Source of the DNA: a virus
DNA length: 64,000 nucleotides
Virus genome (UHGV): UHGV-0373904
Direction: 5' to 3' (one strand)
Positions 9,627 to 21,303 of this stretch are shown piece by piece; within the stretch, counting starts at the first letter, position 1, and every line of letters begins with the position of its first letter. The notes under the pieces were generated by a model. It saw only the letters and a program-made list of their open reading frames with translations, was not told the DNA's origin and did no database searches. The position numbers and the translations under genes are program-made.

Positions 9627-9912
9627 CGTTAAACTCTCTGACGAAGAAATAGTTGACTTTGTTATTACCTACCATAAGGTCAAAGCAGGTATTTTCAAAA
9701 GGCTTGTTGCAGGCATCGTATGAAACATATGGGTCAGCTACTTGCTTAGTGCTTAACTTCTTACTTGATGGATTTAAGAGGCCACCATACAGCTTCTTGA
9801 TAGCCTCTTCTACAACAGACCAGATAATTTCGTCAGTAATTTCTTCGTACAGGTCAAGTTCACGCTCTAGTGAGAAGTCACAAATAGGGAAAACAACCTG
9901 TACTTTACTCAT
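9619..9912 (-). CDS. Hypothetical protein (97 aa)
   Basis: ORF. Confidence 0.45.
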   Translation of the reverse strand: MSKVQVVFPICDFSLERELDLYEEITDEIIWSVVEEAIKKLYGGLLNPSSKKLSTKQVADPYVSYDACNKPFENTCFDLMVGNNKVNYFFVREFNDE

Positions 9913-10743: not shown

Positions 10744-11208
10744 TTACTTTGGATATACACTGTCAAGATAAATGTCAGCTTCCATTCTACGTCTGTTTTT
10801 CAGGCCGTTTGAAGTGACCTTCTTACCTTTGACTGTAACCTTGTTCCACCACTGCATAGCTTCTGCACAACCGACCTTATTACCAGCATTGTGGCGCTTG
10901 ATAAATGTAGAATCCTGCATAGCTGTGATACCGATGTTGTATGTTTCACTTACAAGTGCATCGAACTCGTTCTGAGAAGTTGGAACCTTGATAGCTTTAT
11001 TCACTGCTGCAACGAACTTCTCAACATCTGCAAGAAGATACTGTTCAGCTTGTTCAGCAGTAATTTTCATACCCATCTTAACAGGTTTTCCGTCAATACG
11101 GATTGTCCCATACCCGATTGTTGGGATTCCTGCAGAGTCTTCGTAAGCCTCTAACTTCAGACCTTCAAAGAACTTAATAGCCTCTAAACCTTTTCTTGAG
11201 AGTTGCAT
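10744..11208 (-). CDS. Endolysin, T4-lysozyme-like glycoside hydrolase family 24
   Basis: N-terminal FEGLKLEAYEDSAGIPTIGYG matches the catalytic E..D..T region of T4/lambda-type lysozymes; size 154 aa. Confidence 0.85.
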   Translation of the reverse strand: MQLSRKGLEAIKFFEGLKLEAYEDSAGIPTIGYGTIRIDGKPVKMGMKITAEQAEQYLLADVEKFVAAVNKAIKVPTSQNEFDALVSETYNIGITAMQDSTFIKRHNAGNKVGCAEAMQWWNKVTVKGKKVTSNGLKNRRRMEADIYLDSVYPK

Positions 11209-12341
11209 TATGCCTCCCCTGCTGGGTTAACTGTAACTGTTGCTGCATTAGATGTTACAGAGCCACCTGCACCAGTAACTACACAGGTGTAGCTTCCTGA
11301 ATCAGCAGCGGTTGCACCTTCTTTAGTGTAAGTTGCAGCGGTTGCATCAAGGATATCTTCCTCACCTTTCTTCCACTGGTAACCTGTTGCACCTGTTGCC
11401 ACAACATTCAGTGTTAAGGTCTCACCTTCATTGATTTCTTGATTGGTTGGCTGTTGAGTGATTACCGGAAGTGCATTCACAGTAACTGTTGCTGCGTTAG
11501 ACGTTACAGAGCCACCTGCACCTGTTACAACGCAAGTGTATGAACCTGCATCTGCTGGCAGAGCACCAGACTTGCTATAGGTATCATTTGTAGCTGAAGG
11601 AATGTCAGAGCCATCTTTCTTCCACTGGTAACCTGTTGCACCTGTTGCAGTAACTGCTAAGTTGATGTTTCCACCTTCATTAATAGTCTGGTTAGAAGGT
11701 TGCTTGGTAATCACAGGTAGTGCGTTCACAGTCACTGTTGCTGCATCTGAGGTAACACTTGTTCCACCTTCTCCAGATACAACACAAGTGTATGAACCAG
11801 CGTCAGAAGGTGCTACTGACTGTTTTGTGTAAGTTGCAGAATTGGCACTAGGGATGTCCTCACCATCCTTTTTCCACTGATATCCAGTGGCGTTAGTTGC
11901 TAGAATGGTTAGAGTAAGTGTGCCACCCTCATTAACTGTTTGACCTGTTGGCTGCTGAGTAATTGCTGGTGGCTTGATAGCATCCTTCAACTTAGCATTC
12001 AACATTGAGAACGGCTTAACTCTTGCCAACCATTCACAGTAAATTGTGTCAACATCTTTACCATTGATGATTGCATACTGCAAATCCATGAAGAAATCAG
12101 CAGTTCTCATCTGTGCACCAACACTGTAAAGCAATTCATCACTAAATGGAACTTTGTAGTCTGGTTTGTAGTCAAACTTCTCAACTTCTGCGATATCAGC
12201 TTCAGGCCAATATGAACTATAGGTAAGTGGTAAAATAGCTTCTTGATATGTTCTAAAATCATATCTCTTACCAGCCTTTACATTTGCAATGAAGCCCTTT
12301 ACAAATTCTTTGAAGTCTGGGTAAGTCTTTGCTTTAATCAT
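11208..12341 (-). CDS. Protein with three tandem Ig-like repeats
   Basis: C-terminal half has three ~90-aa repeats (..QPTxQTxNEGxxLTLxxxATGATGYQWKKDGxDIPSAxxxTYxxxxAxxxDxGSYTCVVxGxGGxVTSxAATVTVN). N-terminal ~120 aa is paralogous to the product of 12338..12709. Confidence 0.7.
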   Translation of the reverse strand: MIKAKTYPDFKEFVKGFIANVKAGKRYDFRTYQEAILPLTYSSYWPEADIAEVEKFDYKPDYKVPFSDELLYSVGAQMRTADFFMDLQYAIINGKDVDTIYCEWLARVKPFSMLNAKLKDAIKPPAITQQPTGQTVNEGGTLTLTILATNATGYQWKKDGEDIPSANSATYTKQSVAPSDAGSYTCVVSGEGGTSVTSDAATVTVNALPVITKQPSNQTINEGGNINLAVTATGATGYQWKKDGSDIPSATNDTYSKSGALPADAGSYTCVVTGAGGSVTSNAATVTVNALPVITQQPTNQEINEGETLTLNVVATGATGYQWKKGEEDILDATAATYTKEGATAADSGSYTCVVTGAGGSVTSNAATVTVNPAGEA

Positions 12342-13965: not shown

Positions 13966-14337
13966 ATGAAAAACAGAACAAACAAAGGCCAGTTTAAAAA
14001 AGGCCAGTCTGGAAACCCATCTGGAAGACCAAAAGGCTCTCGTAACAAAAGCTCACTCGTAAAAGCTCAACTGACCATTGATAATTCTGCTGAGTTTGCT
14101 GCAAAGCTGTTTGAGGCGATTGTTACAAGGGATGCTGCTAAGCTTGCAGAGTTCGGGTTAAACACAGACGATGTAACCATCAAGAGTATGATTGAGGTCG
14201 GTAAAACTATCATGACTCACTCAGCAGGTGAGATGAAAGCAATTGCAGCAGACACTAAGAAGGCTCCTGATAACGGTGGTCAGTCTCAGACAGACAACAA
14301 ACCAACGTTCTCTGCTGTTGCAACCCTTAAAAAATAA
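13966..14337 (+). CDS. Hypothetical protein (123 aa), basic Gly/Pro-rich N-terminus
   Basis: ORF; N-terminus KGQFKKGQSGNPSGRPKGSRNK. Confidence 0.5.
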   Translation: MKNRTNKGQFKKGQSGNPSGRPKGSRNKSSLVKAQLTIDNSAEFAAKLFEAIVTRDAAKLAEFGLNTDDVTIKSMIEVGKTIMTHSAGEMKAIAADTKKAPDNGGQSQTDNKPTFSAVATLKK

Positions 14338-14349
14338 TTTTAAAAGATG

Positions 14350-14378
14350 TTGACAGACTCTATAAAGTTACTCTAAAG
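14350..14378 (+). promoter_or_regulatory. Candidate promoter with embedded 9-bp inverted repeat (tgacagact / agtctgtca)
   Basis: aaaagatgTTGACAgactctataaagttactctaaagtctgtca; the -35 hexamer forms one arm of the palindrome. Confidence 0.45.
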
Positions 14379-14418
14379 TCTGTCACATCAAACAACAAAT
14401 GAGAGAAGAGAGTAAAAT

Positions 14419-15834
14419 ATGAGCGAGTTATTTAAACATGCGCACCTTCATGCAGGTCGAACTGAAAATGGTGCTGTAAACCATACTTCATCAATGTCTG
14501 CTCTTGTAGATTTTTACAAAGCTGCTGGTTCAAGCCGTAGCAATGTAGAAATCTTACCAGACTTGTTCTACAAAGCTTTGCGTGAGGATGTTGATGTTGC
14601 AGTTCGTATTTTGCTTCACATGCGAGATGTACGAGAAGGTATGGGTGAGCGTAAAGCCTTCAGAACTGTTTTACTTCAAGCAATCGAAGACAAAGTTTTA
14701 GAGCCTACACAGGTTCTTCGTATTATGGATAAGATTGCAGAACTTGGTCGTTTTGATGACTTCAAAATCTTCGTAGGTACTCGTTTTGAGACAGATGCCT
14801 TTAAGCATTTAGAAGCAGCATTACTAGACCATGAGACAGCAGGTTTAGCAGCCAAGTGGTTACCACGAGTAAAACCACGACACAAACAGTTTGTAAAACG
14901 TTTCTGCAAGTTTGCTAACTTGAGTGAGAAAGAGTACCGCACACTGCTATCTGCACTGTCTGATACGGTTGAGCAAAAAATCTCTGCTAATGAGTTTGGT
15001 AAGATTGATTACAGCAAGATTCCTTCACTTGCTGCTGCACGTTACCAAAAACTGTTTAACCGTAAAGATGGAGAGCGCTACAAAGCTTACATCGAGTCCT
15101 TATCAAAGGGTGAGACTAAGATTAATGCTGGTGCTGTTTACCCATACGATGTGATTAAATCTGTTAAGTATGGTAATGCAGATGTTGCTAATGAGCAGTG
15201 GAAAGCACTACCAAACTGGATGGCAGAGGGTGAAAACATTCTATGTATGTCTGATGTTTCAAGTTCAATGTCTTGGGTGAATTTTGGTTCAATTACTGCT
15301 CTTGATATTGGTGTTTCACTTGCATTGTATGTAGCAGAACGTAATACAGGTTGCTTTAAGAATGAGTTGATGGTTTATTCAACAAACCCTCACTTCATTG
15401 AACTGAGTGGTGATTTACGAAACCGTCATCGTCAGGTAATGCGTCATGTTGAATACGGTTCAACTAACTTACAAGCAGCTTTTGACCGCATTCTTGAGAC
15501 AGGTAAGAGAAACAACTTGACTCAGAAAGATATGCCAAGTAAGCTTATCATCTTCTCTGATATGGAGTTCAATCAGGTTGACGGTGCAAATGGTCGTACA
15601 AACTTTGAAGCAATTCGTAGTAAGTACAAAAAAGCTGGATACGAAATGCCACAACTGGTATTCTGGTACTTAGCAAACCGTAGTGGTACTTGCGAAGTAT
15701 CTGTTAAGGATAACGGTGTAGCAATGGTATCAGGGTTCTCTCCAGCCACTTTAAAAGCTCTTCTTGGTGGTGAGAAGTTTGACCCAATCAGCGTAATGCT
15801 CAAAGCAGTAATGATTGACCGTTACATCTGGTAA
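14419..15834 (+). CDS. vWA-like (MIDAS motif) domain protein, 471 aa; TROVE/Ro60-like RNA-binding protein is a hypothesis
   Basis: C-terminal half has DxSxS in ILCMSDVSSSMS followed by hydrophobic strands (LIIFSDMEF); N-terminal ~260 aa looks helical. Sits directly upstream of the tRNA array. Confidence 0.55.
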   Translation: MSELFKHAHLHAGRTENGAVNHTSSMSALVDFYKAAGSSRSNVEILPDLFYKALREDVDVAVRILLHMRDVREGMGERKAFRTVLLQAIEDKVLEPTQVLRIMDKIAELGRFDDFKIFVGTRFETDAFKHLEAALLDHETAGLAAKWLPRVKPRHKQFVKRFCKFANLSEKEYRTLLSALSDTVEQKISANEFGKIDYSKIPSLAAARYQKLFNRKDGERYKAYIESLSKGETKINAGAVYPYDVIKSVKYGNADVANEQWKALPNWMAEGENILCMSDVSSSMSWVNFGSITALDIGVSLALYVAERNTGCFKNELMVYSTNPHFIELSGDLRNRHRQVMRHVEYGSTNLQAAFDRILETGKRNNLTQKDMPSKLIIFSDMEFNQVDGANGRTNFEAIRSKYKKAGYEMPQLVFWYLANRSGTCEVSVKDNGVAMVSGFSPATLKALLGGEKFDPISVMLKAVMIDRYIW

Positions 15835-15851
15835 AAAGTTTTAAAAAGGGT

Positions 15852-15880
15852 ATTGACAATGTGTTTAATACCCTTTAATA
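15852..15880 (+). promoter_or_regulatory. Sigma70-type promoter (TTGACA-N17-TAATAT) overlapping a 9-bp perfect inverted repeat
   Basis: aaaaagggtaTTGACAatgtgtttaataccctTTAATAT; inverted repeat aagggtatt / aataccctt spans -35 to the spacer. Confidence 0.65.
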
Positions 15881-15943
15881 TGTTCTACATAGAAACGAAA
15901 TGAGAGCTTTTCTAAGATACTGAAAAATATTTTAAAAAAGTTC

Positions 15944-15972
15944 TTGACAACCACTAAAAAATAATGTTAAAG
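15944..15972 (+). promoter_or_regulatory. Candidate promoter upstream of first tRNA (A-tract, TTGACA) with inverted repeat aaccact/agtggtt
   Basis: aaaaaagttcTTGACAaccactaaaaaataatgttaaagtggtt; -10 ambiguous. Confidence 0.4.
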
Positions 15973-15999
15973 TGGTTACATAGAGTTTGAAAAGTTTAT

Positions 16000-16076
16000 C
16001 TCTGTTTAGCTCAGCTTGGTAGAGCGTTCCGTTTGGGGCGGTAAGGCCGGAGGTTCAAGTCCTCCAACAGAGACCA
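16000..16076 (+). tRNA. tRNA-Pro (anticodon TGG)
   Basis: Manual fold: acceptor ctctgtt/aacagag, T-arm ggagg-ttcaagt-cctcc, anticodon loop ttTGGgg, encoded CCA. Confidence 0.75.
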
Positions 16077-16083
16077 AATTAAT

Positions 16084-16161
16084 GTTCCAGTAGACAAAAT
16101 GGTAAAGTCACCACTCTTTCAAAGTGGATATCTGAGGGTTCAAATCCCTTCTGGAACGCCA
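16084..16161 (+). tRNA. tRNA-Glu (anticodon TTC)
   Basis: Acceptor gttccag/ctggaac, anticodon stem ccact/agtgg, loop ctTTCaa, T-loop ttcaaat, CCA. Confidence 0.8.
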
Positions 16162-16162
16162 G

Positions 16163-16252
16163 TTTTGACAGAAGACCAATTACAGCAAACTTAATCTTAT
16201 TCATCTGAAGGTAAATCGGACAAAGAAGAGATTTGGTCTGGTCATTAAGAAT
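16163..16252 (+). repeat. tRNA-array spacer element copy 1 (CAGAAGACCAAT...ATTTGGTCTGG hairpin-bounded)
   Basis: 5' cagaagaccaattacagcaa and 3' tttggtctgg can pair (agaccaa/ttggtct). Confidence 0.55.
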
Positions 16253-16329
16253 TGCGGGTATAGAGAAAGGGCGTCTCACATGTCTCATTAGCATGGTATC
16301 GGCAGGTTCGACTCCTGCACCCGCCTCCA
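16253..16329 (+). tRNA. tRNA with anticodon CAT (Met or Ile2/lysidine type)
   Basis: Acceptor tgcgggt/acccgcc (1:72 mismatch), anticodon stem catgt/gcatg, loop ctCATta, T-arm gcagg-ttcgact-cctgc, CCA. Confidence 0.65.
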
Positions 16330-16330
16330 A

Positions 16331-16403
16331 TTTTGCAGAAGACCGTATTCAGCAACAAAATACTTTTGCGGATAAAAGAAAAAACACGGTCTGGCAATGT
16401 ATT
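16331..16403 (+). repeat. tRNA-array spacer element copy 2 (CAGAAGACCGT...ACGGTCTGG)
   Basis: Same flanking motif with compensatory change (agaccg/cggtct). Confidence 0.55.
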
Positions 16404-16405
16404 AA

Positions 16406-16482
16406 GGTTAGGAAGCACATAAGGTATGTGCGGTCGCCTGTTAAGCGAATGGCACAGGGTTCGAATCCCTGACTAACCGCCA
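16406..16482 (+). tRNA. tRNA-Asn (anticodon GTT)
   Basis: Acceptor ggttagg/actaacc, D-stem gcac/gtgc, anticodon loop ctGTTaa, T-arm caggg-ttcgaat-ccctg, CCA. Confidence 0.8.
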
Positions 16483-16490
16483 AATTAAAT

Positions 16491-16578
16491 GTGTCGTTAT
16501 CCCGTAGATGGTAGCGGTGGGGACTGTAAATCCCTTGTCATTGAGACTCGGTAGGTTCGACTCCTACACGGCACACCA
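16491..16578 (+). tRNA. tRNA-Tyr (anticodon GTA), long variable arm
   Basis: Acceptor gtgtcgt/acggcac, anticodon stem gggga/tccct, loop ctGTAaa, 15-nt variable arm, T-arm gtagg-ttcgact-cctac, CCA. Confidence 0.8.
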
Positions 16579-16583
16579 ATAAA

Positions 16584-16660
16584 GGCTATGTAGTTTAACT
16601 GGAGAAAATACTCCCCTGTCACGGGAGATGATGTGAGTTCAAGTCTCATCGTAGCCGCCA
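16584..16660 (+). tRNA. tRNA-Asp (anticodon GTC)
   Basis: Acceptor ggctatg/cgtagcc, anticodon stem ctccc/gggag, loop ctGTCac, CCA. Confidence 0.8.
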
Positions 16661-16720
16661 ATTTTGAGAGGGCTATTTAGCCCCTCCCTTAAAGGGTTCT
16701 TACGAGTATCCTTTAAAGGA

Positions 16721-16800
16721 GCAGAAGACCAAATACAGCAAGAACGTATGAAAATTTCAAGCCAATTTAATTTTGAAAAATTTAAAACTTGGTCTGGCTC
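16721..16800 (+). repeat. tRNA-array spacer element copy 3 (CAGAAGACCAAATACAGCAA...TTGGTCTGG)
   Basis: Same motif; preceded by terminator-like hairpin agggc-tattta-gccct and a TTAAAGG..CCTTTAA palindrome (16661-16716). Confidence 0.55.
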
Positions 16801-16940
16801 AACAAATTTACAGAAGACCGTTTACAGCAAAACTTAAACAATCTATTTCTCGGTAAAGAAAAGGCGAAGGTTCGATTCCTTCACTCGGCAGATGTCGAGT
16901 TGGTGTAATGGTAGCACTTAAGATGATAAACAACGGTCTG
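16801..16940 (+). repeat. tRNA-array spacer element copy 4 (CAGAAGACCGTTTACAGCAA...AACGGTCTGG) enclosing tRNA-like fragments
   Basis: 8-bp closing stem agaccgtt/aacggtct; the interior holds a T-arm plus 3' acceptor-like segment next to a 5' acceptor plus D-arm-like segment. Confidence 0.55.
16863..16920 (+). pseudogene. tRNA-like fragments (T-arm gaagg-ttcgatt-ccttc plus actcggc, then gtcgagt plus D-arm-like tggtgtaatggtagcac)
   Basis: A canonical T-arm with 3' acceptor-like strand is followed 4 nt later by a complementary 5' acceptor-like strand and a D-arm; no complete cloverleaf could be folded in normal order. Confidence 0.4.
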
Positions 16941-17090
16941 GTAATTATCTTTGTAGATAAGTTATTAAGCTTACCTGTGAGTATGCGACCACAAAGGGTG
17001 AAAGGGTAAATTCTAGATTTAAACCCAAAAAGGCACATCGCTACAGACCTTAAGCAAGTCTGGGTAGCTTATCTGCAAAGATAATTTAAT

Positions 17091-17166
17091 GGAAGTGTAG
17101 CAGAATGGTGATGCGGCAGACTTTTAATCTGACAGGCGATGGGTTCGAATCCCTCCACTTCTACCA
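17091..17166 (+). tRNA. tRNA-Lys (anticodon TTT)
   Basis: Acceptor ggaagtg/cacttct, anticodon stem gcaga/tctga (one mismatch), loop ctTTTaa, T-loop ttcgaat, CCA. Confidence 0.7.
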
Positions 17167-17244
17167 AATTCACCCTTAACTGAGAAACACCTGCGCGGCT
17201 GGAAACACCCACTCAACAGTTTCTCTAACTAGGGTACTTATTCT

Positions 17245-17321
17245 GGTTCAGTCGCAGATAAGGTAATGCAGGGGTTTCATAAGCCCTATGAATGTGGGTT
17301 CGATTCCCATCTGAACCTCCA
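17245..17321 (+). tRNA. tRNA-Met (anticodon CAT); GGG/CCC in the anticodon stem is initiator-like
   Basis: Acceptor ggttcag/ctgaacc, anticodon stem ggggt/gccct, loop ttCATaa, T-arm gtggg-ttcgatt-cccat, CCA. Confidence 0.75.
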
Positions 17322-17322
17322 A

Positions 17323-17398
17323 GCTGGTATAGTTAAGAAGGTTATAACACTCCCCTGATAAGGGAACATCGGTGGTTCGATTCCACCTACCAGCACCA
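17323..17398 (+). tRNA. tRNA-Ile (anticodon GAT)
   Basis: Acceptor gctggta/taccagc, anticodon loop ctGATaa, T-arm ggtgg-ttcgatt-ccacc, CCA. Confidence 0.75.
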
Positions 17399-17413
17399 AT
17401 TTCAATAAAGTTG

Positions 17414-17442
17414 TTGACATTGAGATGTGACTACTTTATAGT
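17414..17442 (+). promoter_or_regulatory. Sigma70-type promoter inside the tRNA array (TTGACA-N17-TATAGT)
   Basis: aaagttgTTGACAttgagatgtgactacttTATAGT. Confidence 0.65.
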
Positions 17443-17445
17443 AAC

Positions 17446-17733
17446 TAAAACACTTCATAATATGTATAATTCAAACACCAATACATGAGCGTTAGACGTA
17501 ACACAATGTGGGGAAATTTGTTGTACATATTCTGAATAGTTTTCGTTGCGTAGCGTCTATTTTGAAAATTTAAAATAAATGCAAACGACAATGTTTTTCT
17601 GGCAGTAGCTTGATAGGCTAAACACCAGTGAGGTCTTCCAATCCCTCATCAAAGAATTTGGCGTACTCGCCCACGGTATGATTAATAAGGTGGGCATCTT
17701 TAAGGGCTTTCTAAGAGAGTCTTTAAAGATAAT
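17446..17733 (+). other. ORF-poor 290-nt segment downstream of a promoter inside the tRNA array; candidate non-coding RNA locus
   Basis: No tRNA fold found, no ORF of 60 aa or more; lies between promoter 17414-17442 and tRNA-Arg. Confidence 0.35.
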
Positions 17734-17810
17734 GCACCCTTAGTTCAATTGGATAGAGCAACGGTCTTCTAAATCGTTAGTTACAGGTTCGAATCCTGTA
17801 GGGTGTACCA
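17734..17810 (+). tRNA. tRNA-Arg (anticodon TCT)
   Basis: Acceptor gcaccct/agggtgt, D-arm gttcaattggatagagc, anticodon stem acggt/atcgt, loop ctTCTaa, T-arm acagg-ttcgaat-cctgt, CCA. Confidence 0.8.
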
Positions 17811-17952
17811 AATAGTTAGCAGATTACTTAGACGGCCTTAGCGGGTCTTCCTGTAGGGAGGTGGTCTGTATCTCATGTTTTCCAGAACATGTAAATAATC
17901 TGAGAAGAGGCTTGACAGTGTTGAGATAACAGGGTAAGCTTCGAATTATAAT

Positions 17953-18035
17953 ATGGGACGATGTTAAGACTCTAAGGCATGAGCAACGGCCTCCAAAACC
18001 GTTTCAAAGGGGTTCAACTCCTCCGTCCCATGCCA
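17953..18035 (+). tRNA. Non-canonical tRNA-like gene (possible anticodon CCA, Trp) with expanded D region and enlarged anticodon loop
   Basis: Perfect 7-bp acceptor atgggac/gtcccat plus GCCA end and T-arm agggg-ttcaact-cctcc; anticodon stem aacgg/ccgtt encloses a 9-nt loop cctccaaaa; D region is about 6 nt too long to fold canonically. Confidence 0.4.
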
Positions 18036-18048
18036 AAGTCTTATTAGG

Positions 18049-18136
18049 GGTAGGTAGCGGCTAATGGTAGCCAAACTGTCTTGAAAACAGTTGCCACTGT
18101 AGAGATACGGTGAGGGTTCGACTCCTTTACTTACCG
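18049..18136 (+). tRNA. tRNA-Ser (anticodon TGA), class II with long variable arm
   Basis: Acceptor ggtaggt/acttacc, anticodon stem actgt/acagt, loop ctTGAaa, ~20-nt variable arm, T-loop ttcgact; CCA not encoded. Confidence 0.75.
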
Positions 18137-18289
18137 CCTAATAAGATTTACTCCGTCCATGCTTGTTCGCATTGTCGGTTTATCCCTCGTGTATTGTCGT
18201 ACACTGTCAAAGCACCTAGTAGGTGTCACGGAGAAGAGATAATATCAAGCTCTCCAAAGGTTCTAGTCACCGGATTAAACAAGACTATG

Positions 18290-18312
18290 CAAAGACCTAT
18301 TTAGGTCTTTTT
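18290..18312 (+). terminator. Rho-independent terminator inside the tRNA array
   Basis: agaccta-ttt-aggtct perfect hairpin followed by ttttt. Confidence 0.6.
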
Positions 18313-18391
18313 AGAGGGCTTCTAAGGTTATTACAGCTTGTTGTGGAACCTTGTTGCTTAGGTTCTTAGAAGTTCTCTAAAAAGATTTAAT

Positions 18392-18468
18392 GCACCTATA
18401 GCCCAACTGGTAGAGGCAGCAGACTTAGAATCTGCTCAGTGTGAGTTCGAATCTCTCTAGGTGTACCA
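18392..18468 (+). tRNA. tRNA with anticodon TAG (Leu by code) but short variable region
   Basis: Acceptor gcaccta/taggtgt (close paralog of tRNA-Arg TCT), anticodon stem gcaga/tctgc, loop ctTAGaa, 5-nt variable region, T-loop ttcgaat, CCA. Confidence 0.6.
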
Positions 18469-18475
18469 AATTAAT

Positions 18476-18551
18476 GCAGGTGTAGCAAAATGGTTATGCG
18501 GCTGACTCTTAATCAGTAAGACGATGGGTTCAATTCCCTCCACCTGTACCA
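18476..18551 (+). tRNA. tRNA-Lys (anticodon CTT)
   Basis: Acceptor gcaggtg/cacctgt, anticodon stem gctga/tcagt, loop ctCTTaa, T-loop ttcaatt, CCA; paralog of tRNA-Lys TTT. Confidence 0.65.
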
Positions 18552-18557
18552 AACATT

Positions 18558-18633
18558 GGGGTCATAGTTTATATGGTTAAAATTCGAGTTTTGCAAACTT
18601 GGGAACTGAGTTCAATTCTCAGTGACTCCACCA
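18558..18633 (+). tRNA. tRNA-Ala (anticodon TGC)
   Basis: Acceptor ggggtca/tgactcc (G3-U70), anticodon stem cgagt/acttg, loop ttTGCaa, T-arm ctgag-ttcaatt-ctcag, CCA. Confidence 0.75.
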
Positions 18634-18639
18634 ATTAGT

Positions 18640-18714
18640 GCATCCATAGTTTAAACGGGAAAATTACAGTCTTCCAAACTGAGGTTGAGGGTTCGATTCC
18701 CTCTGGATGCTCCA
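18640..18714 (+). tRNA. tRNA-Gly (anticodon TCC)
   Basis: Acceptor gcatcca/tggatgc, anticodon loop ctTCCaa, T-arm gaggg-ttcgatt-ccctc, CCA. Confidence 0.7.
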
Positions 18715-18721
18715 AATTAAT

Positions 18722-18797
18722 GCTCCTATCGTATAATTGGCTATTACGGTTGCCTTGTAAGCAACTTATCAGGGTTCGAATCCTTGTGGGAGCACCA
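18722..18797 (+). tRNA. tRNA-Thr (anticodon TGT)
   Basis: Acceptor gctccta/tgggagc, anticodon stem gttgc/gcaac, loop ctTGTaa, T-arm caggg-ttcgaat-ccttg, CCA. Confidence 0.8.
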
Positions 18798-18887
18798 ATT
18801 CAGAGGTCAAGTGAAAGACCGCTTTGAGTCAACTGAAGACCGTAACAAATTCCACGGAGTTGAGTTAGCGGCACAACTCCAGACCTC
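18793..18887 (+). repeat. Structured spacer (agaggtc ... gacctct outer stem, inner hairpin ggagttg..caactcc, GAAGACCG motif)
   Basis: Nested inverted repeats; contains ctgaagaccgtaacaaa related to the CAGAAGACC spacer family. Confidence 0.45.
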
Positions 18888-18893
18888 TTTCAT

Positions 18894-18968
18894 ACTCGCT
18901 TAGTTTATATGGTAAAACATCACCCTTACAAGATGAAGAAAAAGGTTCAAGTCCTTTAGTGAGTACCA
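18894..18968 (+). tRNA. tRNA-Val (anticodon TAC)
   Basis: Acceptor actcgct/agtgagt, D-stem gttt/aaac, anticodon loop ctTACaa, T-arm aaagg-ttcaagt-ccttt, CCA. Confidence 0.7.
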
Positions 18969-18969
18969 T

Positions 18970-19047
18970 GTTCCAGTATCCCAATTGGCAGAGGATGCAA
19001 GCTCAAACCTTGTACTAGTGACGGTTCGAATCCGTCTTGGAACACCA
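18970..19047 (+). tRNA. tRNA with anticodon CAA (Leu by code) but short variable region
   Basis: Acceptor gttccag/ttggaac, anticodon stem gcaag/cttgt, loop ctCAAac, 6-nt variable region, T-arm gacgg-ttcgaat-ccgtc, CCA. Confidence 0.65.
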
Positions 19048-19052
19048 ATTTT

Positions 19053-19128
19053 GCAGGATTAGTTCAAATGGATAGAGCAACAGTCTACGAAGCTGTTAGT
19101 AGGGGTTCGAATCCCTTATCCTGCGCCA
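19053..19128 (+). tRNA. tRNA-Arg (anticodon ACG)
   Basis: Acceptor gcaggat/atcctgc, anticodon stem acagt/gctgt, loop ctACGaa, T-loop ttcgaat, CCA. Confidence 0.75.
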
Positions 19129-19146
19129 GATAAGCAAGAGGAATTT

Positions 19147-19389
19147 ATGCAAACATTAATCGTCGTTGAACATGAAAATCCCAATAGTATTGAGTTTGTA
19201 AGGGTTCCCACTATAGATACTCACATTTTCTTGAAAGTCGGATGGGAATGCGACCCGATAAAAGTAGGAAAATTTCTTGGTCATTACTTTGGTGGAAGAC
19301 AATTTAAAAGTATCAATTTTGAGACAGTATTACCAGAAAACTCAGAAACAGACAATAATACTTACCTCCTTACGAGGATTAGACAATGA
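19147..19389 (+). CDS. Hypothetical protein (80 aa) embedded in the tRNA array
   Basis: ORF with upstream aagaggaa RBS-like sequence. Confidence 0.4.
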   Translation: MQTLIVVEHENPNSIEFVRVPTIDTHIFLKVGWECDPIKVGKFLGHYFGGRQFKSINFETVLPENSETDNNTYLLTRIRQ

Positions 19390-19943
19390 GATACTTAAAA
19401 TATGTTTCATGGATTTTCTTAGCTTTGTTAGAACCATTTGCAGCAACCCTAGCAGTCATCTTAGCACCTTTCGTAGTTCCATTCTACAGTGAGAAGAAAG
19501 GGCATCTACCTTTTGGATTCAGATGGACGGAGACCTATGACAACCCTATTGATGGTGACAAAGGCCACGTTGAGAGATGGGCTAAGATTAGAAAGATTGG
19601 TAAGCTTGGTGTCTACATGCAGAGAGTTGGATGGCTCTGGAGAAACAAAGCTTATAACTTCTCTTACCATGTATTAGGAAGAGATGTAAAAGACGTTACT
19701 AAGTGGAAAGGTAATATCAACGTAAGTTCTAACCCTGAAGATAATCAAACAGGTTATCTCCTAATGTGGAACAGTAATGCTTGGGGATTATTCGCTTTTA
19801 TCCCATCAATTAAAATCTTTGGTAAACAGTTTTACTGGAGAATTTATATTGGATGGAAACTTAAAAGTGTTGTCCCAGAAGAAAGAGCATTCTCAAGGGA
19901 AAGAGTTATGTTGGCATTCTTTATTCATCCACTGAGAAAGTAA
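19386..19943 (+). CDS. Hypothetical membrane protein (185 aa) embedded in the tRNA array
   Basis: N-terminal hydrophobic segment WIFLALLEPFAATLAVILAPFVVPF; 4-nt overlap with the upstream ORF. Confidence 0.45.
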   Translation: MRYLKYVSWIFLALLEPFAATLAVILAPFVVPFYSEKKGHLPFGFRWTETYDNPIDGDKGHVERWAKIRKIGKLGVYMQRVGWLWRNKAYNFSYHVLGRDVKDVTKWKGNINVSSNPEDNQTGYLLMWNSNAWGLFAFIPSIKIFGKQFYWRIYIGWKLKSVVPEERAFSRERVMLAFFIHPLRK

Positions 19944-19951
19944 AGATTTAA

Positions 19952-20027
19952 AGGGGATTAGTTTACAAGGTTAAAACCTCGGTCTTTGAAATCGAAGAAG
20001 TTGGTTCAATTCCAACATCCCCCGCCA
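19952..20027 (+). tRNA. tRNA-Gln (anticodon TTG)
   Basis: Acceptor aggggat/atccccc (1:72 mismatch), D-stem gttt/aaac, anticodon stem tcggt/atcga, loop ctTTGaa, T-arm gttgg-ttcaatt-ccaac, CCA. Confidence 0.7.
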
Positions 20028-20029
20028 AT

Positions 20030-20108
20030 GCTCCATTACTCCAATTGGCAGAGAGGCCAGACTTAAAATCTGTGTTATGTATCGGTTCGAATCCGATATG
20101 GAGTACCA
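20030..20108 (+). tRNA. tRNA with anticodon TAA (Leu by code) but short variable region
   Basis: Acceptor gctccat/atggagt, anticodon loop ctTAAaa, 7-nt variable region, T-arm atcgg-ttcgaat-ccgat, CCA; paralog of the CAA tRNA at 18970. Confidence 0.65.
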
Positions 20109-20113
20109 AATTT

Positions 20114-20189
20114 AGCGGTATAGCATAACTGGCAATGCAACAGTCTCTGAAGCTGTCCTATTAAGGTTCAAATCCTTATGCCGCTGCCA
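20114..20189 (+). tRNA. tRNA-Gln (anticodon CTG)
   Basis: Acceptor agcggta/tgccgct, D-stem gcat/atgc, anticodon stem acagt/gctgt, loop ctCTGaa, T-arm taagg-ttcaaat-cctta, CCA. Confidence 0.7.
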
Positions 20190-20220
20190 CTTCTAAGGAT
20201 TCTTACGAGAGTCCTTAAAT

Positions 20221-20296
20221 GTGGCCTTATCATAAAAGGTAATGACCCATGCTGTGAACATGGTCTATACGGGTTCAAATCCCGTAGGTCACCCCA
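20221..20296 (+). tRNA. tRNA-His (anticodon GTG)
   Basis: Acceptor gtggcct/aggtcac, D-stem tcat/atga, anticodon stem ccatg/catgg, loop ctGTGaa, T-arm acggg-ttcaaat-cccgt, CCA; no encoded G-1. Confidence 0.75.
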
Positions 20297-20301
20297 ATTT
20301 A

Positions 20302-20378
20302 TAGTCCAAGTAGCTTATATGGTTAAAGCGCGTGTCTGAAAAACATGAGAAGAGGGTTCAAATCCCACTGGACTACCA
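20302..20378 (+). tRNA. tRNA-Phe (anticodon GAA)
   Basis: Acceptor tagtcca/tggacta, anticodon stem cgtgt/acatg, loop ctGAAaa, T-loop ttcaaat. Confidence 0.7.
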
Positions 20379-20394
20379 ATTTCAAAGGTGCTTA

Positions 20395-21129
20395 ATGAAA
20401 GAGATGACAGAACAAGGTAAGGAGATTTTTAATCTCTTAAAAACTGGTAAAGGGTTTTCTAACCCCCTTATTACTGGTGCAGCAGTTCTCGGTGGAACCG
20501 TAGCTGCCTCTACATCACTTGTAAGCTCTATTAGCTCTGTATCAGACCCTACAGTAAAGGATAAGCTTGTTGCTGCTGGACTTACAACAGTTCTGCTTAA
20601 CAGCTTTACCACGAGTCTGACAAGCACTACATCAACTACCAAAACACTAACAGATTACGGTCAAAAGTCCATTGATGAGTTTTCATCACGTATGCAGGTA
20701 GCAAAAGGTTACTCTAATGTTATGGGTGCAGCAGGTGAACAAGTTGGCTGTACACCGTTTAGTGGTATTATGGGCGTTGCTACAGAATATGGTCAAAAAG
20801 CTATTGACACAATTAACAGTGCACTAGATGTCGTTAATGATGTATTAAGTGACTTACAAGATGCTATTGACAAAGGTCTTGATACTATTTCTGATTTAGC
20901 TAACCAAGCTGTTAGTAAGATTAATGAAGGTATTTCGAAGATTACAGCTTATGCAGATGAAGTTGTGCAGATGATTGAAGAAGAAGCTGCTCTTATTGCA
21001 GAGTACCTTAAAACGAATATCAATGGGTTCTTAGCAGGTATCTTACCAGACTGGTTTGATGATGCTTGTAAAACTGGTGTGATTGACACTATTGCAACAC
21101 CAGAAATGAAGAACGCATTACAGAAATAA
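20395..21129 (+). CDS. Hypothetical Ser/Thr-rich protein
   Basis: ORF track start 20332 lies inside tRNA-Phe; the ATG at 20395 is preceded by aaagg. Ser/Thr-rich low-complexity N-terminal region. Confidence 0.5.
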   Translation: MKEMTEQGKEIFNLLKTGKGFSNPLITGAAVLGGTVAASTSLVSSISSVSDPTVKDKLVAAGLTTVLLNSFTTSLTSTTSTTKTLTDYGQKSIDEFSSRMQVAKGYSNVMGAAGEQVGCTPFSGIMGVATEYGQKAIDTINSALDVVNDVLSDLQDAIDKGLDTISDLANQAVSKINEGISKITAYADEVVQMIEEEAALIAEYLKTNINGFLAGILPDWFDDACKTGVIDTIATPEMKNALQK

Positions 21130-21130
21130 T

Positions 21131-21223
21131 GGAAGATTAACCCTAAAAGGTAAGGGAGCAGTTTGCTAAACTGCCAGTAGCTGAGAAATCGGTGTACCAG
21201 TTCAAGTCTGGTATCTTCCTCCA
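21131..21223 (+). tRNA. tRNA-Ser (anticodon GCT), class II
   Basis: Acceptor ggaagat/atcttcc, anticodon stem gcagt/actgc, loop ttGCTaa, 21-nt variable arm, T-arm accag-ttcaagt-ctggt, CCA. Confidence 0.8.
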
Positions 21224-21227
21224 ATTT

Positions 21228-21303
21228 GAATCCGTGACAGAAATGGCTATGTGCCTGTCTGCAAAACAGGTTTATAAGGGTTCGAGTCCCTTCGGATTCT
21301 CCA
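21228..21303 (+). tRNA. tRNA-Cys (anticodon GCA)
   Basis: Acceptor gaatccg/cggattc, anticodon stem cctgt/acagg, loop ctGCAaa, T-arm aaggg-ttcgagt-ccctt, CCA. Confidence 0.8.

Follow-up and report, generated by a model that had tools for sequence, protein, structure and literature searches.

We analyzed a gene and its accompanying noncoding RNAs in UHGV virus genome UHGV-0373904, a stretch of 64,000 nucleotides (nt) of viral DNA (hereafter, the window) that belongs to a Felixounavirus, a myovirus resembling Felix O1 and wV8. The gene, at positions 14419 to 15834 on the plus strand, encodes a 471-amino-acid protein of the DUF2828/DUF7788 family that has a predicted Ro60 fold with an intact and conserved MIDAS (metal ion-dependent adhesion site). 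Four structured RNAs, here named Y1 to Y4, lie downstream on the same strand between tRNA genes; they belong to a covarying RNA family, and the adjacency of such RNAs to the gene, on its strand, is conserved. We consider it probable that this is a phage Ro60-like protein with Y1-Y4 as its native partners, and we infer that the protein binds the RNAs, that the RNAs are processed, and that the downstream steps set out below would follow.

The open reading frame (ORF) starts with ATG, and its translation contains the motif CMSDVSSSMS exactly as reported by a preliminary reading made without database searches (the sequence-only reading). That reading had also proposed about 260 helical residues followed by a von Willebrand A (vWA) domain, and both parts are borne out: an AlphaFold model is helical to about residue 263 and then alternates strands and helices as a vWA domain, Pfam DUF2828 matches the helical part (102.8 bits, gathering cut-off 29), and Pfam DUF7788, a vWA family, matches residues 274-455 (147.8 bits, gathering cut-off 27.1). 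In a family alignment of 45 homologs D279, S281, S283, T349 and D381 are invariant, demonstrating that the complete MIDAS is conserved, and the helical domain holds numerous invariant arginines and lysines (R40, R69, R72, R78, R111, K146). The whole chain, residues 1-471, matches phrog_850 ('RNA-binding protein') at E 1.5e-183, and RefSeq likewise labels the protein 'RNA-binding protein'. A 2.2-kb query around the gene matched 253 phage records, 160 of them at 95-99% identity. The gene is found in about 250 Felixounavirus records (80-99% DNA identity) and, by tblastn, in at least 710 records of cultured phages with hosts among the Proteobacteria, Actinobacteria and Firmicutes, while 2673 database proteins match at E≤1e-3. 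Given this wide occurrence, the gene is not a chance ORF.

In fold searches, Ro60 proteins rank first and match over the full length, with isolated vWA domains far behind. By these models, the protein is a helical ring closed by a vWA/MIDAS domain, the Ro60 arrangement in one chain, and the N-terminal domain falls to the Ro60 ring fold and not to an unrelated family. Where the sequence-only reading had spoken of a TROVE/Ro60-type RNA-binding protein, the full-length Ro60 fold stood and the TROVE sequence assignment gave way to DUF2828/DUF7788. Its protein-level interpretation was correct but not new. A PhageMaP preprint describes gp130 of Bas63 as structurally similar to Ro60 and directly upstream of tRNAs (PMC11482910). 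Bas63 (phage JohannRWettstein) is a Felixounavirus at about 96% DNA identity to the window, and gp130 (bas63_0130), a 1416-nt coding sequence (CDS) directly upstream of tRNA-Pro, is the positional ortholog. Deletion of gp130 leads to tiny plaques on a host with the Ppl defense, and complementation restores plaques (PMC11482910). The Ro60 resemblance and the anti-Ppl role of the protein are already published or annotated.

Direct reading of the spacers in the tRNA array revealed four related units on the plus strand, 332-1110 nt downstream of the gene. The exact sequence AGAAGACC occurs five times on the plus strand of the 64 kb, and four of these occurrences are Y1-Y4, each then followed by GGTCTGG. 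All four units fold to a common closing structure. Its outer helix of four base pairs (bp) varies in sequence from unit to unit with complementarity kept; its inner helix of 7-8 bp pairs AGACC, extended by AA, GU, AA and GUU in Y1 to Y4, with a complement ending in GGUCU; and a single-stranded (U/A)(U/A)CAGCAA, conserved in all four, comes right after the 5' strand of the inner helix. Y4, with a T-arm (GAAGGUUCGAUUCCUUC), an acceptor-like hairpin of 7 bp and a D-arm (GUGUAAUGGUAGCAC), is a circularly permuted tRNA without anticodon arm. All six Felixounavirus loci examined hold four units in one order, and Y1 and Y2 occupy their inter-tRNA spacers to within 3-8 nt of the flanking tRNAs. Rfam, searched over the window at gathering thresholds and at E≤1 or E≤10, returned no Y RNA or YrlA family; the absence of a partner RNA that this blank suggested was overturned by reading the spacers directly. 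In public records Y1-Y4 are unannotated, or short opposite-strand 'hypothetical' CDSs are drawn over Y3 and Y4. Such opposite-strand ORFs lie at 16808-17038 of the window (minus strand, 76 amino acids), at L001 5948-6222 (bas63_0137, bas63_0138) and at L202 4390-4647 (WV8_gp048; loci outside the window are cited by L numbers), and they are probably spurious calls caused by the unannotated noncoding RNAs.

The wider family was examined in a distant sample of 75 loci that encode homologs at 39-47% identity. As the exact Felixounavirus motif (AGAAGACC...GGTCTG) was not found in these loci, structure-aware scans were adopted. In a strict scan, a match had to combine the motif with a neighboring helix that begins with AG and spans at least 7 bp, its 3' strand being followed by G. 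The gene strand yielded 66 such matches and the opposite strand none, and block shuffles gave 0-1. Helix sequences are wholly different between phages; little or no variation is seen in the motif, in the 3' G or in the A-U and G-C pairs at the helix base, and UWCAGCAA, following the AGR-initiated helix, is the motif conserved family-wide. R1, a covariance model of the short form, yielded 55 matches at E≤0.01, all on the gene strand. About 70 orphan T-arms, unassigned to any tRNA, also lie always on the gene strand, many of them in the order T-arm, closed hairpin, D-arm within such a closing helix.

For this tRNA-like class we built a second covariance model, R2, from a seed of seven sequences, all from distant phages. 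MAFFT alignments of the class (A3-A6) mis-registered the acceptor hairpin, the D-arm or the closing stem, and the seed was slightly edited, with two length-variable hairpins normalized and three rows dropped; the matches are on real sequence. R2 finds its best match of the window in Y4 (60.9 bits, E about 1e-11, full model, no non-canonical pairs), with real tRNAs at E>0.1, and because the seed contains no Felixounavirus sequence, this match is an independent test. Across 76 sources R2 made 54 matches, all on the gene strand. Of the cells in the R2 alignment, 95% are paired, versus 37-43% with slid partners; compensatory changes occur in 21 of 23 pairs, supporting all four helices; and the covariation score is 0.42, versus at most 0.065 (slid) and at most 0.105 (shuffled, 0/500). 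The closing module is also found with short bodies of 46-70 nt and with larger ones that fall into at least two conserved classes. The pairing of gene and RNA extends beyond Proteobacteria: in mycobacteriophage Loadrie, R2 matches over its full length (58.5 bits, E 1.3e-11) an element with UACAGCAA that lies 98 nt past the DUF2828 gene, and in Listeria phage A511 the 357-nt gap ahead of the DUF2828 gene gp57 holds three elements in tandem. A covarying closing helix together with a motif that stays invariant over phages of three bacterial phyla points to selection for a particular RNA structure.

Several individual members of the family deserve mention. One lineage carries three different RNAs that share the closing module, in fixed order upstream of the DUF2828 gene (L008 8528-9058; L009 2843-3380; L012 149-442; L014 628-2135; L016 686-1638; L028 9409-9946). 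The first class, of 119-251 nt, contains GGUUCGAAC...GUCCCUUACAYCACUCU, the second, of 95-132 nt, has CCUUUCUGGAGGGGAAAGCAAAAACUCGCCAAAA, and the third is tRNA-like; the two larger bodies matched none of the models and families tried. At L044 9734-9833, a Y-type closing helix (AGGUUAG/CUAACCU) with UUUCAGCAA encloses a tRNA-Thr called by ARAGORN at 9753-9824, and this element may represent a stage between tRNA and Y-like RNA. In several tRNA-like units (L076 11843-11905; L058 11563-11618; L029 1824-1878; L076 14527-14583) the loop of the acceptor-like hairpin contains NCCA (ACCAACUAU, GCCAAUU, GCCACUAU); the corresponding loop of Y4 is a plain AGAU. The NCCA loops resemble Mycobacterium smegmatis YrlA, which is cut by RNase P and gains CCA, and by that analogy cleavage might divide these RNAs into two pieces with a tRNA-like 3' end.

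To ask whether the RNA accompanies the gene or the tRNAs, we combined the calls of R1, R2 and the strict scan: at least one element is present in 51 of the 75 distant loci, within 500 nt of the gene in 37 and within 1 kb in 40. For tRNAs, the corresponding counts are 34, 12 and 17. An element occurs with no tRNA within 10 kb in 19 loci and a tRNA with no element in two, and only 11 of 104 elements adjoin a tRNA. The elements of one lineage are 5.5-9 kb downstream of the gene, beside transfer-messenger RNA (tmRNA) and tRNA-Met genes. The conserved neighbor of the gene is the Y-like RNA, not the tRNA array. The sequence-only reading had rightly put the gene directly before an array (26 tRNAs from position 16000, the first 166 nt past the gene) with non-tRNA structured segments, which are real and are Y1-Y4, and the linkage it looked for in relatives exists in that the gene is linked to noncoding RNAs there. 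Its suggestion of partner RNAs beside the gene holds for the same-strand Y-like RNAs and not for the tRNA array as conserved neighbor. The promoter it assigned to the gene has a counterpart in a sigma-70-like candidate at 14350-14379, a consensus match only.

Other RNAs were noted around the gene in related phages. A tmRNA is present at L030 15822-16176, L033 16119-16479, L046 16694-17067, L048 13168-13521, L062 18753-19121 and L023 1317-1767, in most of these 5-7 kb past the DUF2828 gene, but about 8.7 kb past it in L062 and some 3.3 kb ahead of it in L023. In this lineage the Y-like elements gather next to the tmRNA and tRNA-Met genes and not next to the protein gene. In a distant phage, L018, Rfam identifies positions 15696-15922 as a group I intron (RF00028, 71.5 bits, E 3.3e-16), about 4.3 kb downstream of the DUF2828 gene.

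In the explanation we favor, the protein would bind the constant module of the RNAs, at a putative site comprising the 7-8-bp helix with its basal A-U and G-C pairs, the 3' G and single-stranded UACAGCAA; the Felixounavirus module also has the 4-bp outer helix across an AGA/G internal loop. The RNA bodies are the variable part, three of them short and one a YrlA-like permuted tRNA mimic. Y1-Y4 would be transcribed together with the tRNAs from the promoter-like sites at 15853-15973, which likely mark the start of the tRNA/Y-RNA transcript, and would be freed by tRNA-processing enzymes, that is, by RNase P and 3'-end tRNA processing. Release by these enzymes is probable because Y1 and Y2 fill their spacers so nearly completely. 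To our knowledge, E. coli K-12 has no Ro60 of its own, so the phage would supply the whole system. By analogy with Ro60 and Y RNAs, the particle may capture RNA ends in or on the ring, and the variable RNA module may recruit or distract host factors, either exoribonucleases such as polynucleotide phosphorylase (PNPase) or tRNA-recognizing enzymes. Engagement of PNPase by a Ro60/Y particle has been shown for Deinococcus and proposed for phage phiLo (PMC4201824; PMC12135203). Overall, the particle would favor phage growth and oppose host defense.

We compared this system with known Ro60/Rsr systems, namely Xenopus and human Ro60, Deinococcus Rsr/Yrn1, and Salmonella and Mycobacterium Rsr with YrlA/YrlB. 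Common to them and the window are the ring-then-vWA fold (here predicted), a conserved MIDAS and same-strand Y-type RNAs within about 4 kb. However, Ro60/Rsr proteins have about 500-540 amino acids, whereas the window protein is shorter and shows Pfam DUF2828 and DUF7788 without a TROVE signature; the closing module here is AGR.../...YCU plus G with UWCAGCAA, whereas canonical Ro60/Y RNAs have the bulged helix GNCGAAN0-1G / GGUCCGA; and the window RNAs, unlike those of the compared systems, are embedded in a tRNA array. Y4 shares the permuted layout of YrlA, in which a T-arm, a closed acceptor-like stem and a D-arm are enclosed by a 5'/3' closing stem; a 2014 YrlA survey describes that layout as a circularly permuted tRNA without anticodon arm (PMC4201824). 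The Rfam YrlA model (RF02553) reaches three distant elements at 28.7-39.2 bits, below gathering but at significant E values (3.7e-5, 4.5e-5 and 0.041), and leaves the Loadrie element unmatched at E≤0.1. In L076 its alignment takes in the T-arm, the acceptor hairpin, UA and the D-arm but not the motif, and the outer helices are non-canonical, a pattern indicating a tRNA-like body in common with YrlA and a distinct protein-proximal module. The L018 member carries CGAAG at the position of the Ro-binding motif.

Among phages, the Ro60 of Thermus phage phiLo with Yrl1/Yrl2 (PDB 9KOP, 9L5Y; PMC12135203) differs in being TROVE-annotated and in having Yrl RNAs that carry CGAA; its sequence identity to the window protein is 14-16%. 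PhageMaP guessed that some annotated tRNA genes may be Y RNAs, whereas the Y-like RNAs here sit between tRNAs, and it defined no RNA family (PMC11482910). The mycobacteriophage 'Ro-like RNA binding protein' (for example Loadrie gp54; SEA-PHAGES) belongs to the same family, with 32-34% identity over the full length and E values to 1e-79; it is DUF2828 plus DUF7788, not TROVE, and 'Ro-like', like the PHROG 850 and RefSeq names, is an annotation label only. The 2014 survey chose TROVE-annotated phage proteins (PMC4201824). No study on RNA partners of the mycobacteriophage/PHROG 850 proteins was found in the literature covered, the 2014 supplementary phage list and two reviews lying outside it. 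In the searchable literature we found no description of the cognate RNA family, of the module that defines it, of its position in tRNA-array spacers or of how widely it occurs among phages; the 2014 list may include DUF2828-type loci.

Several results weigh against a phage Ro60-like protein with Y1-Y4 as partners. TROVE (Pfam PF05731) gave no match to the window protein at E≤1 and none to the 45 family members at E≤10. On the RNA side, the RF02553 model missed Y4 at E≤10 on a 1-kb slice (its gathering threshold is 69 bits), the canonical Ro-binding motif GNCGAAN0-1G is absent from the window units, which have CAGAAGACC instead, and the units, folded as single sequences, reach modest z-scores (-1.0 to -2.4). 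The outer helix, which exists in Felixounavirus and some other lineages, is only 54% paired in fixed register, and we rejected it as a family-wide feature. Covariation was scored on an alignment that had itself been fitted to the model, and inner-helix pairing was a selection criterion in alignment A2. Roughly 12-24 of the 75 distant loci have no confidently detected element; at least 10 of the 24 'negative' loci carry below-threshold variants beside the gene, for example with a UG/CA helix base instead of AG/CU, and several others have less than 250 nt of flank. The reverse search, from motif to gene, was under-powered on its short fragments and found the gene in three of nine element-bearing fragments versus none of 91 others. 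Its matches are mostly chance ones, with genuine elements in nine of 100 fragments. Two 'elements' inside ORFs were discarded as regular-expression false positives, and the stem-bearing matches without the gene are flanked by structural-looking ORFs. Finally, gp130 alone, plasmid-borne or in T7, restores T7 plaquing on Ppl hosts (PMC11482910); T7 lacks these RNAs, so the anti-Ppl phenotype does not require the phage Y-like RNAs. It is because gp130 acts on Ppl in this way that we hold the full explanation to be probable and no more, and that, within it, the RNAs would modulate or retarget the protein or serve a second function.

Searches of NCBIfam and of the PDB by phmmer also gave no link to TROVE, and a profile search against the PDB reached Ro60 only at E 0.38 and in the vWA/MIDAS region only, where the window MIDAS motif aligns with DVSASM of Ro60. 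Pfam vWA_Ro60 is matched by 10 of the 45 family members. The protein, as modeled, is Ro60-like in fold and, by sequence criteria, not a TROVE family member.

The sufficiency of gp130 in T7 would suit an account in which the protein is a stand-alone counter-defense factor whose Ro60-like scaffold binds or blocks the Ppl system or a nucleic-acid signal required by it, and the RNA elements are cis-regulatory operators, for autoregulation or timing, in untranslated regions (UTRs) or in the tRNA precursor, and not stable trans-acting Y RNAs. Many distant elements do lie 0-60 nt from a start or stop codon, the place expected of a UTR operator, and for such loci the account is plausible (offsets of -5 in L009, 0 in L012, -6 in L016, -3 in L023, +17 in L013, +23 in L015, +20 in L020 and +15 in L025). 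However, two promoter-like sites and two tRNAs separate the gene from the elements in the window, and in the lineage with tmRNA and tRNA-Met neighbors the elements are kilobases away. Multiple copies and elaborate bodies, including a tRNA mimic with conserved T- and D-loops, exceed the needs of a simple operator. Canonical Y RNAs, according to the 2014 survey, are likewise adjacent to and co-transcribed with Ro60 genes (PMC4201824). As operators, the elements would still require the protein to bind RNA, which overlaps with the explanation we favor, and we regard the operator account as unlikely.

That the spacer elements are unrelated to the protein, being processing signals, decayed or permuted tRNA pseudogenes or mobile repeats brought near the gene only by tRNA clusters, seems to us very unlikely. 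Y1, Y2 and several L007 elements exactly fill inter-tRNA spacers, Y4 holds tRNA-derived modules, and tRNAs also occur in 32 of the 51 element-positive loci, all as such a view would have it. Against it stand the 19 loci with elements alone versus two of the reverse kind, the threefold excess of elements over tRNAs within 500 nt of the gene (37 vs 12 of 75), the small share of elements abutting a tRNA (11/104), their strict placement on the gene strand, and a covarying closing helix with an invariant motif across phages of three bacterial phyla. The sequence-only reading had kept metal-dependent adhesion or assembly in reserve, and this found no support. vWA/MIDAS domains are classic protein-ligand adhesion modules, and the C-terminal domain is a typical one with its MIDAS intact and many vWA-only structural matches; on this view the protein would serve adhesion or virion or complex assembly and would not bind RNA. 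But those matches are much weaker than the Ro60 matches, and the Ro60-specific fold, the genomic context and the trans-acting counter-defense phenotype make this the least credible of the alternatives, extremely improbable in our estimation.

Conservation of Ro60 and Y RNAs extends from bacteria to humans, and a second, sequence-distinct family with the predicted Ro60 fold has a Y-like RNA family of its own. These RNAs share a simple, recognizable protein-proximal module on diverse bodies, mirroring the constant-stem, variable-module design of Y RNAs. Because the anti-Ppl phenotype is found in a tractable E. coli phage, modulation of the activity by RNA and a role of the tRNA mimic are directly testable. 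The RNAs are unannotated in public records, and models of the R1/R2 type could correct hundreds of genomes. A bolder proposal, which we put forward tentatively and think rather doubtful, is that DUF2828/DUF7788 proteins and their RNAs make up a modular ribonucleoprotein platform that is widespread in phages and separate from canonical Ro60/Y, and whose constant stem (AGR helix plus UWCAGCAA) presents interchangeable RNA modules. If so, tRNA mimics, short hairpins and at least two larger classes would be shown to host machinery, as decoys for tRNA-targeting defense nucleases or as tethers redirecting host exoribonucleases. This would be an RNA-based counter-defense, and location in a tRNA array would amount to borrowing tRNA-processing enzymes for RNA release.

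Table 1. Features of the window discussed in the text, with window coordinates.
Feature	Position	Strand	Basis
CDS, protein of predicted Ro60 fold, DUF2828/DUF7788 family, Bas63 gp130 ortholog	14419..15834	+	Sequence, Pfam, PHROG, fold searches
N-terminal all-helical domain, residues 1 to ~263, predicted structural equivalent of the Ro60 HEAT-repeat ring	14419..15207	+	
C-terminal vWA domain, residues 274-455, Pfam DUF7788	15238..15783	+	
MIDAS DxSxS motif D279-V-S281-S-S283, completed by T349 and D381	15253..15267	+	Sequence; invariant in homologs
Sigma-70-like promoter candidate TTGACA-18-TAAAGT upstream of the gene	14350..14379	+	Consensus scan, 10/12 matches
Sigma-70-like promoter candidates, two in tandem, after the gene and before tRNA-Pro	15853-15881, 15944-15973	+	Consensus matches only
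tRNA array, first spacers hold Y1-Y4	16000..21303	+	ARAGORN; Rfam
Y1, short form, tRNA-Glu to tRNA-Met spacer	16166..16244	+	R1 46.6 bits, E 1.2e-8 (Y1 in R1 seed)
Y1 structure: TGAC/GTCA outer helix, AGA loop opposite G, inner AGACCAA/TTGGTCT, then UUACAGCAA	16166..16244	+	
Y2, short form, tRNA-Met to tRNA-Asn spacer	16333..16397	+	R1; also R2 23.7 bits, E 0.0064
Y2 structure: TTGC/GCAA outer helix, AGA/G loop, inner AGACCGT/ACGGTCT	16333..16397	+	
Y3, short form: GAGC/GCTC outer helix, AGA/G loop, inner AGACCAA/TTGGTCT, then AUACAGCAA	16719..16800	+	Spacer reading, folding, R1
Y4, YrlA-like: TTAC/GTAA outer helix, AGA/G loop, inner AGACCGTT/AACGGTCT, then UACAGCAA	16808..16944	+	Folding; R2
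Y4 body: V-like hairpin, T-arm 16866-16882, closed acceptor-like hairpin 16883-16900, UG, D-arm 16903-16917		+	

The 26 genes of the tRNA array were called by ARAGORN. Promoter-like sites in the region as a whole are not enriched over shuffles, and all are consensus matches only. The tRNA-Met (CAU) called by ARAGORN at 16253-16329 was considered as a possible Y RNA and rejected, having a normal cloverleaf and a CAU anticodon loop. The Rfam tRNA model is silent there at E≤1 over 11 kb, and a 1-kb slice yields only a tRNA-Sec-like match of 15.9 bits; by eye, the anticodon loop is normal, a U1-C72 mismatch tops the acceptor stem and the D-loop is odd. It could be an initiator-like or tRNA-Ile2-like species. 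Farther along, a 335-nt non-tRNA spacer (17399-17733) opens with the best promoter-like site of the region (17414-17442, 11/12 matches) and gives weak tmRNA-type Rfam matches (24.5 and 13.5 bits), with no match to R1 or R2. Another non-tRNA spacer, of 238 nt, holds a weak tRNA-Sec signal in Rfam at 17955-18029 (23 bits, E 0.78), uncalled by ARAGORN and accompanied by a promoter-like site at 17921-17949; this may be a degenerate tRNA or another tRNA-like RNA. In some Felixounaviruses an insert of about 0.8 kb separates Y2 from Y3 (L004 11980-12756; L006 10816-11587; Salmonella phage BPS17W1), annotated in BPS17W1 as an HNH homing endonuclease and accompanied in L004 by fewer tRNAs. The Y/tRNA region is a target of mobile endonuclease genes.

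Immediately upstream of the DUF2828/DUF7788 gene, a same-strand ORF of 123 amino acids (13966-14337, plus strand) has a basic, glycine-rich N-terminus (KGQSGNPSGRPKGSRNK) and is assigned to DUF5681 in RefSeq relatives. Unrelated to this locus is a 377-amino-acid protein encoded at 11208-12341 on the minus strand, with three tandem immunoglobulin-like repeats (...GYQWKKDG.DIP....YTK......DAGSYTCVV...), which is labeled 'immunoglobulin-like domain protein' in Bas63.

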